Source: Escherichia phage OES_C-1. Taken from it: DNA of 64,000 bases. The translations under genes were made by a program, and so were the position numbers. The DNA lies in the sequence record PQ553088; one strand, 5' to 3'. Below the pieces are notes generated by a model. That model did not search any database. It was not told the origin of the DNA and saw only the letters and a program-made list of their open reading frames with translations. Positions 46,623-51,225 of the stretch are shown piece after piece. The stretch's first letter is position 1, and each line of letters begins with the position of its first letter.

Positions 46623-47093
46623 TTAATCATGTTTCCACACCCCATCGGTATTTGACCAAAGTCGCTGATTATCTGAACCTCGCCACAGCTTTTTGGTCGG
46701 AAGATTTTTCTCATACTTCCCATCAATAATAACATCAACATATTTAAGCATTTCTAGTTGTTTAATATCTTCAAACTTATATCCTGTCCACAACCAAATG
46801 CTTTTATTCGGATAAAGATTTTTTACTGTTTGAACAATGCAATGAACAACATCTCGGTTATCAGGATAAAGAGGGTCTCCTCCAGTTATAGTTAATCCTT
46901 CTATATAATCATTATTCAAACATTCAATTAATTGTTCTAGCGTTTCACCAGTGAATGGAACGCCATTTCTAGCATTCCATGTTGATTTATTATAACACCC
47001 TTCACATTTATGCAAACACCCCGTAACGAAAAGAACGACCCTGCATCCAGGGCCATTCACAAAATCACAGGGATAAAATCTATCGTAATTCAT
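46623..47093 (-). CDS. nrdG: anaerobic ribonucleotide reductase activating protein NrdG (radical SAM)
   Basis: CLHKCEGCYN CxxxCxxC motif; overlaps nrdD stop. Confidence 0.85.
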   Translation of the reverse strand: MNYDRFYPCDFVNGPGCRVVLFVTGCLHKCEGCYNKSTWNARNGVPFTGETLEQLIECLNNDYIEGLTITGGDPLYPDNRDVVHCIVQTVKNLYPNKSIWLWTGYKFEDIKQLEMLKYVDVIIDGKYEKNLPTKKLWRGSDNQRLWSNTDGVWKHD

Positions 47094-48907
47094 TGGTGTT
47101 TAACCCTATGCATGATTTCTTTATTTTTGCCAAGATTAAATCCGCGCTCGTTCGGATTTCCCAAATAACCGCAAGTTCTTCTTATTGTGTTCATCTTTTT
47201 AGGATCAGTTTCTCCACAAACAGAACAAACAAATCCGTTTTCAGTAGGAGTCATTTCATGGGTACTTCCGCATGTAAAACATTTATCTACCGGCATGTTA
47301 ACACCAAAATAATCTAAATGTTGTGCAGCATAATCCCATACAGCCTCAAGACCTTTTAGGTTATTTTTCATATCAGGAAGTTCAACATAAGAAATGTGAC
47401 CGCCTGTCGCAATGAAATGATATGGGGCTTCGCGAGAAATCTTTTCAAACGGAGTAATATTTTCTTCTACTGAAACGTGGAAACTGTTAGTGTACCAGCC
47501 TTTATCAGTAACATCCTTTACACTTCCATATTTTTCGGTATCAAGTTTACAGAAGCGATAGCACAGGTTTTCAGCAGGAGTAGAATATAAGCTAAAAGCA
47601 AAACCGGTTCTTTCAGTCCACTGCTTAAGATGAGTATTCATTTTAGTTAAAATTTCTTGTCCAATATCACGACCGACAAGAATATTCAATTCGTGAATAC
47701 CAATGTATCCTAAGGACACTGAACTTCTACCGTTTTTAAATAACTCAATTATATCGTCATCAGGTTTAAGACGAACCCCGAATGCACCTTCTTGGTAAAG
47801 AATAGGAGCAACAGTCGCTTTAACTCCTTTTAAGGAACTGATTCTACACATCAAAGCTTCAAAACATAAATCCATTCGTTCATTGAACAATTCGGCAAAT
47901 TTCTGTTCATTGAACTGTGTTCCAATATAAGAATCTAACGCAATACGAGGAAGATTCAGTGTTACAACACCAAGATTATTACGTCCATCAAGAATTTCAT
48001 TACCAGTCGAATCTTTCCACGCGCTCAAGAAACTGCGGCAACCCATTGGAGAAACAGGAATAGATGAGCCGGTGATAGCTTTATTGTTCTTAGCTGAAAT
48101 AATATCAGGATACATCCTTTTGCTTGCACACTCTAGAGCAAGCTGCTTAATATCATAGTTCGGATCGTCTTTATAAAGATTAACACCTTCTTCAACGAAC
48201 ATAACAAGCTTAGGGAAAATAGGAGTTATCCCATCACGACCGAGACCTTTAATACGATTTTTCAGAATTGCTTTCTGAATCATTCGTTCAGTCCAGTCAG
48301 TTCCCGTACCAAATGTAATTGTTACAAAAGGAGTCTGTCCGTTTGAACTAAAGAGAGTATTTACTTCATATTCATAAGCTTGGAATGCATCGTATACATC
48401 TTTTTCTGTTTTAGATTGAGCATAATTTAACGCATCAGCGATTTGCCATTTTTCTGCATCCTCAATATGTTTTGCATAGGTGCGTTTAACATAAGGAGAA
48501 AGTACTTTATCTACATTAGCAAAAGTCGTTCCGCCATATTGATGGGAAGCAACTTGCGCAGTAATTTGTGCCATAATTGCAGTAGCAACGCCAATTGATT
48601 TAGGAGTTTCAATCTGCGCATTACCAAGCTTAAATCCGTTCTCAAGCATTCCTTTTAAATCTACTAAACAACAATTAGTAAAAGGCAATGATATACTGTA
48701 ATCTAAATCATGAAAATGAATTAATCCGACGTTATGAGCATTTACAATATGGCTTGGAAGAATACTACAAGCGATATGTTTAGAAACAATACCAGCCATT
48801 AAATCTCTTTTTGTTGGAAAGACACGAGAATCTTTGTTGGCATTTTCGGTATTTAATTCTTTATCTTTATTTGAAATAAAATTTAAAACATCTTTCTCTA
48901 AAGACAT
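47090..48907 (-). CDS. nrdD: anaerobic ribonucleotide reductase NrdD, 605 aa, uninterrupted
   Basis: Continuous ORF through glycyl-radical C-terminus (...RRTCGYLGNPNERGFNLGKN) and C-x2-C...C-x2-C zinc site. Confidence 0.9.
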   Translation of the reverse strand: MSLEKDVLNFISNKDKELNTENANKDSRVFPTKRDLMAGIVSKHIACSILPSHIVNAHNVGLIHFHDLDYSISLPFTNCCLVDLKGMLENGFKLGNAQIETPKSIGVATAIMAQITAQVASHQYGGTTFANVDKVLSPYVKRTYAKHIEDAEKWQIADALNYAQSKTEKDVYDAFQAYEYEVNTLFSSNGQTPFVTITFGTGTDWTERMIQKAILKNRIKGLGRDGITPIFPKLVMFVEEGVNLYKDDPNYDIKQLALECASKRMYPDIISAKNNKAITGSSIPVSPMGCRSFLSAWKDSTGNEILDGRNNLGVVTLNLPRIALDSYIGTQFNEQKFAELFNERMDLCFEALMCRISSLKGVKATVAPILYQEGAFGVRLKPDDDIIELFKNGRSSVSLGYIGIHELNILVGRDIGQEILTKMNTHLKQWTERTGFAFSLYSTPAENLCYRFCKLDTEKYGSVKDVTDKGWYTNSFHVSVEENITPFEKISREAPYHFIATGGHISYVELPDMKNNLKGLEAVWDYAAQHLDYFGVNMPVDKCFTCGSTHEMTPTENGFVCSVCGETDPKKMNTIRRTCGYLGNPNERGFNLGKNKEIMHRVKHQ

Positions 48908-49719
48908 AATTCTAATTTATCCTTTTGAAATTCTTCGTCTAAATATGGGTTCCAACCCATTTTAAACCTTTTGATGAAATTATCAATTCTAAATTTCGGT
49001 AAGTTTAAATCCGCAAAAATAGATGATTTACTTTTAAAATCTGGACCTAAATAATCATATAAAATTTCTGCGTATTTTAACCATAATATACAAGTACCAG
49101 ATTTAATTGCTCTCGGAGTTTTCCAAGGTTTTACACCATACATCGGATTTCCACTTCCTTTATGCCTGATAGAAGATGAAATTCCAATTTTAATTTTAGC
49201 TTCCTTTGTGTGCGAAAATCCATGATGTGGATTTTCTTTCCAGTATTTTTTAGAAGCTTCTGATATTTTCTTTCTGGCTAAATTAGTATGATGCTTTCCA
49301 TAAAATCCATGATTTTTACCTTTATTACGATTTCTTTTAATCATGGTTATTGATTGCTTTTCTCTAGTTTCTTTAGAAGGAGAAATACCATACGTTGTAA
49401 ATTGACCGTCAGCATATGCTAAATTGAAATACTCTTTATTCCATATATCTTTTTCTATATTCTTTTGAAATTCAGCTTCAATGCTAGTTATTTGTTCATC
49501 TCCGACTAATTGAAAATATAATATTTCAACTTTCGGCGTTTCTTTCAACAGGGCTTTTTGAAATTCGGAAGATGACGAAGACGAATAATAAAATTTACCA
49601 TTTTTATCAATAATATTCGTTCCGTCAAAAGTGCAATTGGTTTTACTTCCAATATAATAATATGGCGGGGTTTTAGCATTAATTCTACTAATAAATGATA
49701 GTTTATATACTACATTCAT
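48898..49719 (-). CDS. free-standing GIY-YIG homing endonuclease (Seg-like), 273 aa
   Basis: VVYKLSFI...PPYYYIGS core; HGFYGKHH / GSGNPMYG NUMOD-like repeats; overlaps 49 stop and nrdD start. Confidence 0.6.
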   Translation of the reverse strand: MNVVYKLSFISRINAKTPPYYYIGSKTNCTFDGTNIIDKNGKFYYSSSSSSEFQKALLKETPKVEILYFQLVGDEQITSIEAEFQKNIEKDIWNKEYFNLAYADGQFTTYGISPSKETREKQSITMIKRNRNKGKNHGFYGKHHTNLARKKISEASKKYWKENPHHGFSHTKEAKIKIGISSSIRHKGSGNPMYGVKPWKTPRAIKSGTCILWLKYAEILYDYLGPDFKSKSSIFADLNLPKFRIDNFIKRFKMGWNPYLDEEFQKDKLELCL

Positions 49720-50189
49720 TTTAAACTCTTTCTAAGCTGCTTCTTAAATGAAGCTATTAATTGTGTTTTAGTGTCAGATTCATTATATTCAAATCCTCTT
49801 TGAAGCATCTCGGCCATCATTTCCTCTTTTCCTAAACGAGAAAATTCCTTTGATTTATCTCCAACAAAGTTAGGGTGAATATTATTTTGGGTGTAATCGG
49901 ATTTTAAATAAGTAAGTAAATTTTCTAACCATTCAAGATAATCAACACCTTGTCCCTTTAAGCCAGAACGATTAAATTTATGCTTCATTTGACCTTCTGC
50001 GGCATTGCATAGATTACAAAGCAATCCACGTACCTTTCCTGCTTTTGGTCCATTTAATTCATGGTCATGATCAAGATGATTAGCTTGAACATCAGGATTT
50101 AGTTCTCGTTGGCAAATTAAACATTTACCGTTTTGTGCATCATAAAATTTCTGTTTTTCTTCTTTATATAATTTGCCAGTCAATAACAT
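49716..50189 (-). CDS. 49: endonuclease VII gp49 (Holliday junction resolvase), 157 aa
   Basis: MLLTGKLYKEEKQKFYDAQNGKCLICQRELNPDVQANHLDHDHELNGPKAGKVRGLLCNLCN... matches T4 gp49. Confidence 0.95.
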   Translation of the reverse strand: MLLTGKLYKEEKQKFYDAQNGKCLICQRELNPDVQANHLDHDHELNGPKAGKVRGLLCNLCNAAEGQMKHKFNRSGLKGQGVDYLEWLENLLTYLKSDYTQNNIHPNFVGDKSKEFSRLGKEEMMAEMLQRGFEYNESDTKTQLIASFKKQLRKSLK

Positions 50190-50231
50190 AATAAAACCCT
50201 TACCTTAAATAGATAAGGGTATTTATTATTT

Positions 50232-50286
50232 TTAAGTATTGTAAAACATTCGATGCAATCGTTTATACTGTCGAATCATCTTTTTA
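50232..50286. repeat. direct repeat copy A (~50 bp, ~90% identical to 50444..50495)
   Basis: aagtattgtaaaacattcgatgcaatcgtttatactgtcgaatc vs aagtattataaaacatttgatgcaatcgcttatattgccgaatc. Confidence 0.7.
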
Positions 50287-50410
50287 GTAGGACGAGAATA
50301 GGTTCCTACGCAAGTGGTCATATGAGGGTCCGTAGAATGTCCTTTAATAAAAAGTTTCCAAACCTTACCGCCATTTAACTTTTCAGTATAAACCAATTCG
50401 GTTTTCATTA
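50234..50410 (-). CDS. hypothetical protein (58 aa) with Pin-like C-terminal 17 aa
   Basis: Hand translation MKTELVYTEKLNGGKVWKLFIKGHSTDPHMTTCVGTYSRPTKKMIRQYKRLHRMFYNT. Confidence 0.4.
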
Positions 50411-50443
50411 AAATGTCCTGTCAGAAAAAGAATTTTGAGTTTT

Positions 50444-50521
50444 TTCAAGTATTATAAAACATTTGATGCAATCGCTTATATTGCCGAATCTTTTGGTCAG
50501 AAAAAGAAATTTGAGTTTCAA
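50444..50521. repeat. direct repeat copy B plus flanking 24-bp repeat gtcagaaaaagaaWtttgagttt (also at 50419..50442)
   Basis: Read directly from sequence. Confidence 0.7.
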
Positions 50522-50930
50522 GCCATTCAATGTACTCTGCGGCAGCTTGCATCAGGTTACCTTCATAGCCATCGTTATTTTCTTGCGCAGCTAATTTAGC
50601 TAATGCGTATGAAATACGTTCACCTTGAAAAGAGGCTTCAGGCTTCTGAACATCTTGGCTAGTTCTCTCTACAACTTCTTCAATTTCGCCATTTTCGACT
50701 GATTCAGTATTCCACAAGCACCAATACGTAATTGGCTTATCGTAGATGTTAATAATCTTTCCGTCGGAAAGTTCAATTTCAATAATTCCAGTATCAGGTT
50801 CTATATCATCTTCACATTCTTTTGCAAGTTCACGAACTTTAAAGACAGTACCTGCACTAAGTTCCGGCCAGTAATTACACAGCCCTATATCAACACGATT
50901 AATTCTAAACCACTTATCTACTGTAATCAT
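50445..50930 (-). CDS. pin: Pin (protease inhibitor)-position protein, 161 aa from internal ATG
   Basis: Length and position between 49 and nrdC as T4 pin; track start is a TTG upstream. Confidence 0.5.
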   Translation of the reverse strand: MITVDKWFRINRVDIGLCNYWPELSAGTVFKVRELAKECEDDIEPDTGIIEIELSDGKIINIYDKPITYWCLWNTESVENGEIEEVVERTSQDVQKPEASFQGERISYALAKLAAQENNDGYEGNLMQAAAEYIEWLETQISFSDQKIRQYKRLHQMFYNT

Positions 50931-51225
50931 GTCCCATCTCCATATCAATTAAGTCATTTATCGTTGGTTCATTATATACTGTTTCTTCATCAGTGTAAAC
51001 CGGTTCTTCCGGCTCTGGCTCTACAGTTTCCCATCTAGCCGCCCACCAAGGTTTAACCCCGAAGCTTATTAAGTTCTTCATAATCAATCCAGGATTCTAA
51101 TCCTGATGGCAAATCAGATTCAATTTCCCAAAGAAGCTCTTCAATTTTCTGAAGACGATCTAGTTCTTCGGCTGGAATAGTAACCATTGACGGAACTCGT
51201 GATACATTAATATCGTAAATCATAT

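Follow-up and report, generated by a model that had tools for sequence, protein, structure and literature searches.

Two neighbouring genes of an Escherichia phage end in closely similar sequences, and the locus raises the question of which gene owned this ending first and how the other one came by it. The stretch of DNA analysed here, called the window throughout, comprises 64,000 nucleotides of Escherichia phage OES_C-1 (sequence record PQ553088). A first-pass annotation had noticed that the 3' end of pin recurs at the end of an adjacent small open reading frame (ORF), and had taken the small ORF for a mosaic gene generated by copying the end of pin, perhaps through homing-associated recombination. 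Our comparison with related phages argues for the reverse direction and for an interval that has been rearranged more than once.

Gene order and repeats between pin and gene 49

The window comes from a Tequatrovirus, and its segment 49700-51000 is identical (100%) to the corresponding sequence of Escherichia phages OES_C-2 and OES_C-3. Its minus strand, on which all features described below lie, carries the genes in the order nrdC, 49.3, 49.2, 49.1, pin, a 58-aa ORF, gene 49, a GIY-YIG/NUMOD3 ORF and nrdD. The pin gene (50445-50930), recognized from Pfam and PHROG profiles and from the pin annotation of relatives, encodes the T4-type, fused form of the Lon protease inhibitor with 161 aa. The 58-aa ORF (50232-50408), with the translation MKTELVYTEKLNGGKVWKLFIKGHSTDPHMTTCVGTYSRPTKKMIRQYKRLHRMFYNT, is an intact gene of the DUF7279 family by its Pfam and PHROG matches and is equivalent to RB32ORF078c and RB69ORF087c. 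Gene 49 (49716-50189), identified as an ORF and from relatives, encodes endonuclease VII (gp49) and represents the conserved downstream flank.

A stem-loop at 50196-50220, directly upstream of the gene 49 start, anchors the variable interval between pin and gene 49 on its 3' side; it was detected as a terminator-like match with 10 base pairs. It folds with -20.4 kcal/mol (z -4.5) and pairs with the start region of gene 49. The same sequence is present in VR5, G53 and PECP20, and Tequatro-, Dhaka- and Mosigviruses show hardly any variation in it; the regulatory hairpin of T4 gene 49 looks similar. Just upstream of the stem-loop, AATAAATA (50220-50227) resembles a T4 late promoter. At the other side of the interval, a sigma-70-like promoter sequence at 50971-50999 (minus strand; TTTACA, 17 nt, TATAAT, 11/12 positions, near consensus) lies within the coding region of 49.1, just upstream of pin. 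The homing-endonuclease-like ORF (48898-49719; 273 aa, phrog_7504, called from ORF and profile searches) occupies the space from gene 49 to nrdD and shares a few bases with each of these two genes. The nrdD gene itself (47090-48907) is a single uninterrupted ORF of 605 aa; in T4, nrdD carries a group I intron.

Two pairs of direct repeats stand out in the interval, both at the places where they had first been noticed and both far above chance. The longer pair, A and A', comprises 50229-50277 and 50442-50490 with 43/49 identical positions (87.8%; BLAST E 2e-8 over the whole 64-kb window). Its best 48-nt window has 42/48 matches, whereas 200 shuffled versions of 50100-51000 gave 27.5 on average and never more than 32. 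The shorter pair, R2, comprises 50420-50442 and 50496-50518 with 22/23 matches (E 7e-5). No extra copies of A/A' or R2 were found elsewhere in the 64-kb window. In coding terms, A (50232-50279) consists of the last 15 codons of the DUF7279 gene, MIRQYKRLHRMFYNT, and its stop, and A' (50445-50492), found in the repeat search and by its match to phrog_3272, encodes KIRQYKRLHQMFYNT and the stop at what is now the C-terminus of Pin. The two genes had been credited with a shared peptide of 17 residues; the peptide is there, with a length of 15. As described earlier, one R2 copy is located inside pin (50496-50518), where it represents the native codons (E)TQISFSD of the motif WLExQxxFSD, and the other one (50420-50442) is found shortly before the start codon of the small ORF, within what we describe below as a relic of pin.

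Read in gene orientation, the interval consists of the pin body, R2, six nucleotides, A' with the pin stop, AA, the second R2, AGGACATTTTA and the DUF7279 ATG, followed by the DUF7279 body, A with the DUF7279 stop, the hairpin and gene 49. The offset between the two copies is 213 nt for A/A' and 76 nt for R2, and the DUF7279 body is present only once. These two offsets and the single body rule out a simple tandem duplication of one unit with a single period. A third, weaker patch of similarity connects the DUF7279 body (50333-50354) with the relic of pin (50409-50430; 18/22 positions, 21/32 when extended), and like R2 it has an offset of 76 nt. None of 5000 shuffles reached its score at this fixed offset, which was chosen post hoc, and the two sides have in common the octamer AGGACATT, which is allele-specific at both sites. 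The patch may reflect a micro-conversion or a convergence on a Shine-Dalgarno motif.

Family membership of the shared tail

The 58-aa ORF is an ordinary, bona fide member of the DUF7279/phrog_3272 family. Its residues 7-56 align with positions 1-53 of the 53 in the Pfam model DUF7279 (PF23945; E 3e-17), and its score of 62.7 bits exceeds the Pfam gathering cut-off of 24.5; the match to phrog_3272 (E 3.4e-34) covers positions 1-58 of 59. Homologues were found by tblastn in 369 phage records, and DUF7279 genes immediately precede the hairpin and gene 49 in Nami, HMD-9, RB32, VR5, G53, RB69, PECP20 and many IMG/VR loci. With a full-length model match and the same position upstream of gene 49, the window ORF is no different from the rest of the family. 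AlphaFold2 predicted strands at residues 2-9, 15-22 and 31-37 and a helix at 42-56, with a pLDDT of 82 for the best model and 52-63 for the other four, based on a shallow alignment. A large protein collection contained only 10 DUF7279 clusters, all phage-like, so that no deeper alignment was available for structure prediction.

The repeated tail MIRQYKRLHRMFYNT is the native C-terminal helix of DUF7279. It is also the most conserved part of the protein, with R39, P40, T41, K42, I45, R46, K49, R50, H52, R53 and F55 being invariant, and it is conserved in the homologues of Dhaka- and Mosigviruses and of PECP20. A Foldseek comparison of the DUF7279 model with the PDB returned nothing with an E-value below 0.27 and therefore gave no functional lead. 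We found no literature on DUF7279, PF23945, RB32ORF078c or RB69ORF087c; the GenBank note on RB32ORF078c reads "similar to RB69ORF087c, JS98orf087clike, pin".

The Pin protein of the window ends in SDQKIRQYKRLHQMFYNT. Its residues 4-141 match the Pfam family Inhibitor_I24 (PF10465; E 1.8e-46, 157.9 bits against a cut-off of 27) and its residues 1-146 are covered by phrog_2167. The last 15 residues (147-161) lie outside both Pin profiles and correspond to positions 44-58 of phrog_3272. They do not form part of the Pin family: in many genera Pin lacks this tail and ends after the conserved motif WLExQxxFSD in the form WLExQxxFSD[RK]AF. Among the 20 clusters of Tequatrovirus-type Pin in the large protein collection, 13 are untailed with 148 aa and 6 are tailed, in addition to the query. 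T4 Pin, or PinA (UniProt P07068), is known from the literature as an inhibitor of the E. coli Lon protease (PMC8835725 and references therein), and the Pin of the window may act likewise. In the PinA literature that we found, nothing was said about the C-terminus or a chimeric nature of the protein. An AlphaFold2 model of Pin had a mean pLDDT of 66, with residues 145-158 below 50 and the tail modelled as a low-confidence helical extension, and was dropped as a structural argument on the tail.

Comparison with other genera bears on the direction of copying. In the Dhakavirus VR5, a short Pin ending in WLEAQLRFSDKAF overlaps a DUF7279 gene that ends in MIRQFKRLHRSFYNI. In the Mosigviruses G53 and RB69, Pin ends in YLERRLS and is followed by a DUF7279 protein ending in MIRQYKRFHRDFYNVY, and PECP20 carries a tailed DUF7279 gene directly upstream of gene 49 and no pin. 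Among 44 IMG/VR loci anchored on gp49, untailed Pins from several further genera, of the form LExQLxFSD[RK]AF or similar, were found in the loci L018, L019, L022, L023, L030, L033 and L051. Since the tail is covered by the profiles of DUF7279 and phrog_3272 but lies beyond those of Pin, which stop at residues 141 and 146, and since tailed DUF7279 proteins occur beside untailed Pins (VR5, G53/RB69) or in the absence of pin (PECP20), the tail is native to DUF7279 and foreign to Pin, with pin as the recipient that copied it from the small gene.

These observations reverse the proposal of a recent mosaic origin for the 58-aa ORF, by copying of the 3' end of pin and possibly driven by the Seg-like endonuclease. 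That proposal could draw on the existence of the repeats, on the polymorphism of the interval among relatives and on the homing-endonuclease-like gene about 0.5 kb away. However, the ORF belongs to a curated, older family whose profile contains the tail, and tailed homologues in other genera stand beside an untailed Pin or without any pin. Moreover, about 110 phages have the allele, and of the 40 best matches listed, 35 have alignments that start at query base 17 and carry it without a Seg-like ORF and with nrdD abutting gene 49; among these matches the Seg-like ORF occurs only in OES_C-2, OES_C-3, AV121, MLP2 and BEU50. Thus, the endonuclease gene is indeed nearby as had been pointed out, but in the 40 matches listed its presence does not co-vary with the repeat-bearing allele, and the suggested causal link to homing is not borne out. 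We regard a young origin of the ORF from pin as very improbable.

Alleles of the interval and their probable history

The interval between pin and gene 49 exists in four alleles in Tequatrovirus and is a polymorphic recombination mosaic, as the first-pass annotation had supposed, rather than a sequence shared identically by all relatives. In the split type (Nami, HMD-9, HY01, IME340), a Pin of 148 aa ends in WLETQISFSDRAF, and its stop overlaps the start of the DUF7279 gene (TAATG), which ends in MIRQYKRLHRMFYNT. The T4 type (T4, T2, T6, RB68, AR1) encodes a Pin of 161 aa and has no DUF7279 gene. In the pin-only type, represented by phage 132, a 148-aa Pin is encoded and the DUF7279 gene has been removed between TTTTAAT and TTTTACAAT. 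The RB32 type (RB32, RB33, AV119 and the window) combines the 161-aa Pin with a relic of pin and a complete DUF7279 gene. We estimated about 112 records of the RB32 type, about 75 of the split type and about 246 of the T4 type from evenly spaced rows of a junction-spanning search; these numbers agree with 187 records that cover at least 80% of the query and with 116 records that carry a DUF7279 gene with at least 95% identity. Several RB32-type genomes (232Ecol030PP, G3G7, G29, MLP2 and CAM-21) contain a second place that matches the 411-nt or the 106-nt query, and OES_C-2 contains only one.

The split and the T4 type can be compared directly. The distance from the WLE codons of pin to the ATG of gene 49 is 262 nt in Nami (L001) and 125 nt in T4 (L056), which corresponds to a deletion of 137 nt. 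Since 137 equals 3n+2, this deletion provides exactly the shift from the pin frame to the DUF7279 frame across the TAATG overlap. The junction is preserved most cleanly in T4 itself, where Pin ends in FSDR followed by MIQQYKRLHQMFYNT, that is, pin through the R of SDRAF joined to DUF7279 from M44 onwards (its last 15 codons), with the nucleotide junction TCTGACCGA/ATGATTCAG (TCT GAC CGA/ATG ATT CAG, FSDR/MIQ). In the window the corresponding junction is GAC CAA AAG (50490-50498, encoding D-Q-K), as identified by comparison with T4 and Nami. The junction reads RM in T4, SDQM in RB32 and AV119 and SDQK in the window and RB68; these are point variants at one position in all fused alleles, which indicates a single origin for the fused alleles. 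Residues 147-161 of T4 PinA are, by this comparison, captured from the neighbouring gene, and the reference PinA is in this sense a chimeric protein.

The RB32 type contains more than this fusion. Behind the fused pin, a 35-nt stretch (50408-50442), AAACTCAAAATTCTTTTTCTGACAGGACATTTTAATG, is recognizable from comparison with Nami, HMD-9 and VR5 as a relic of the 3' end of an untailed pin. It reads (E)TQNSFSDRTF and a stop, and its TAA overlaps the DUF7279 ATG in the ancestral TAATG arrangement; the counterpart in the split-type phages Nami and HMD-9 reads ETQISFSDRAF and a stop, with the same overlap. The reading frame of the relic now forms the tail of a spurious 40-aa ORF, and an AGGA Shine-Dalgarno-like motif lies 8 nt before the DUF7279 ATG, suggesting that the relic serves as ribosome-binding region and spacer for DUF7279. 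A promoter scan of the sequence from pin to DUF7279 detected no sigma-70-like site. The allele is defined by two extra A residues at the joint between the fused pin and the relic (50443-50444; TGA-AA-AAACTC). Since RB32 and AV119 have exactly the same joint as the window, the RB32 type can be traced to one origin.

The two tail copies of the window point to two sources. A' differs from the tails of T4, RB68 and Nami at only 1-2 of 48 positions and from A of the window at 6, whereas A shares GAC, AAA-CG and TAA with VR5 and GAC, CAG and AAA-CG with G53. Taken together, the interval is probably a deletion- and recombination-prone mosaic in which the RB32-type allele of the window arose in three steps. 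The ancestor, as the comparison shows, was of the split type, with a pin ending in WLETQ(I/N)SFSDRAF whose stop overlapped a separate 58-aa DUF7279 gene. Next, the single 137-nt deletion took the last two codons and the stop of pin together with DUF7279 codons 1-43, moved pin into the DUF7279 frame and thereby produced the 161-aa T4-type Pin, the last 15 residues of which correspond to the DUF7279 helix. Finally, a T4-type genome may have recombined illegitimately with a diverged phage of the split type, at an A-run beside CTTGAAA, so that the last 35 nt of the donor's untailed pin and its intact DUF7279 gene came to lie behind the stop of the fused pin. Such a series of events would leave the module for the DUF7279 helix present twice (A and A'), and likewise the module for the end of pin (R2).

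The heptamer CTTGAAA near the joint is common to the T4-type sequence after the stop and to the native WLE codons of pin, and together with the A-run it may have mediated the recombination. A clean crossover within CTTGAAA, however, would leave 3 A residues, and the joint has 6. The third step depends on about 6 diagnostic nucleotides in the 48-nt module, and the identity of the two R2 copies in RB32 (23/23) fits a duplication in situ equally well. Such a duplication was therefore weighed as an alternative, in which 213 nt of a split-type ancestor, from the end of pin through DUF7279, were duplicated in tandem, a 137-nt deletion in the upstream copy then created the RB32 type, and the T4 type was derived later by recombination between A' and A. 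In favour of this alternative, the joint lies beside CTTGAAA, which is present at both ends of the putative unit, and the two R2 copies are identical in AV119 as they are in RB32. Furthermore, a synthetic 258-nt product of A'/A recombination matches fPS-65, ECP52 and EO1 at 98.5% in one piece. These three phages are suggestive candidates for natural A'/A deletion products, although fPS-65 and the Nami tail are a single base apart (TAA versus TGA), which leaves one diagnostic base for such an origin.

Several other features argue against the duplication in situ. In the T4 type, the tail and the flank downstream of it match the Nami type in all but one codon and show no A'/A hybrid; the T4 type has TGA instead of TAA, and GGC, CAA and AAG-CG instead of GAC, CAG and AAA-CG. 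Copies that began as identical would now have to differ at 6 of 48 positions, as A and A' do. Moreover, this alternative needs three events rather than one to produce the commonest allele, and the intermediate with the full duplication was not seen among the records inspected. We therefore consider it unlikely, and prefer reacquisition of the DUF7279 gene from a diverged donor. The lineage of the donor could not be followed through haplotypes of the Pin body, such as ERVDQAIHKP; these were dropped as a tracer because the same haplotypes occur with and without the tail. Frequent homologous exchange scrambles linkage in these phages.

As direct repeats, A/A' and R2 are potential substrates for additional deletions, by which one allele would turn into another. 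A synthetic 205-nt query was used to look for a natural product of R2/R2 deletion, and the best 30 of 706 records were all undeleted, two-piece matches. Neither this search nor the one for A'/A products yielded a clear natural deletion product of the window allele.

Related events are found in other genera. RB69-like phages such as G53 (L006, 306-1080) carry two DUF7279 paralogues flanking pin (DUF7279a, pin, DUF7279b), and one variant (L021) has a frameshifted downstream DUF7279 copy. PECP20 looks like a candidate tail-to-tail deletion product of this Mosigvirus arrangement. Independently of the T4 type, Pin is fused in frame to a tail at an ACGTTT microhomology (YLERR/FHRDFYNVY and stop) in ZQ3, which is an RB69-like phage, in the locus L052 and in a Logan contig. 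P0037 represents an N-terminal DUF7279-Pin fusion, and the loci L053 and L054 carry a DUF7279-Pin fusion of 191 aa. The parallel events in RB69-like phages support a general mechanism based on short homologies. Six Dhakavirus loci (L013, L016, L017, L024, L028 and L029; at about 980-1290) encode a Pin of 57 aa that corresponds to the conserved C-terminal part, and several of them contain an extra ORF of 89 or 100 aa between Pin and DUF7279, with overlapping stop and start codons. These extra ORFs mark the boundary of pin and DUF7279 in Dhakaviruses as a hot spot for insertions.

Relation to known systems and possible meaning

The Pin of the window is a 161-aa orthologue of T4 Pin/PinA with the fused C-terminus known from T4, T2, T6 and RB68, and only the junction residues differ (QK in the window, RM in T4, QM in RB32). 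With regard to the mechanism, the closest one described is the modular shuffling mediated by PeSLs in T4-type phages, and a homology of less than 50 bp suffices for T4 recombination (Arbiol et al. 2010, PMC2839356). The window resembles the PeSL system (PMC2839356) in that a small accessory gene of a hyperplastic region has short, conserved direct repeats on both sides, and recombination between the repeats here would excise or insert a 213-nt unit. However, the repeats of the window are coding 3' ends and not intergenic cassettes of promoter and stem-loop; between 50190 and 50520 no promoter-like site was detected, pin and DUF7279 have no PeSL-like element between them, and the only stem-loop is that at 50196-50220, downstream of the entire unit. 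Seg/Mob homing offers a likeness in the GIY-YIG/NUMOD3 ORF between nrdD and gene 49, but this ORF does not co-vary with the allele, and the joints show microhomology or an A-run and not a gene insertion. GenBank has contained this allele from the RB32 entry onwards, and the event itself is ordinary short-homology mosaicism. The modest new point is that the C-terminus of the reference T4 PinA was captured from its neighbour.

Whether the tail was kept twice for its function is a separate matter. Selection could have favoured it as a module with a portable function, such as a helix for docking to Lon or to a common partner. Pin has captured it in frame twice independently (in the T4 type and in ZQ3/L052), a DUF7279-Pin fusion exists in the reverse order (P0037), pin and DUF7279 are adjacent across genera, often with a TAATG overlap, and no part of DUF7279 is better conserved. 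On the other hand, Pin is untailed in about a third of the Tequatrovirus records and in most other genera, its tail was modelled with a pLDDT below 50, and no structural or functional homologue was found. Two in-frame events would also be expected by chance in about 1/9 of cases, and out-of-frame joins stop within 0-4 codons. For this last reason, in-frame capture was discarded as evidence of selection: with the other two frames closed so early, two such fusions are not statistically remarkable. A functional reason for the two copies consequently seems doubtful to us, and we give similarly little weight to the related idea that Pin has DUF7279 as its partner or co-factor in neutralizing Lon or another host target, with the helix as the transferable module. 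If this were true, the repeated captures, the N-terminal fusion and the conserved translational coupling would constitute a "Rosetta-stone" signal, and the T4 PinA used in all biochemistry would be a chimera of two genes whose tail contributes to its activity.

Overall, the odd repeats of the window can be explained as traces of two recombination events of an ordinary kind, in a part of T4-like genomes that is known to be hyperplastic. Many natural Pins have 148 aa and are untailed, and thus provide natural variants for mapping what is needed for binding between Pin and Lon. Together with the events in RB69-like phages, the four inter-convertible alleles offer a compact example of how coding repeats of 23-49 nt and microhomologies make, fuse and delete small phage genes.
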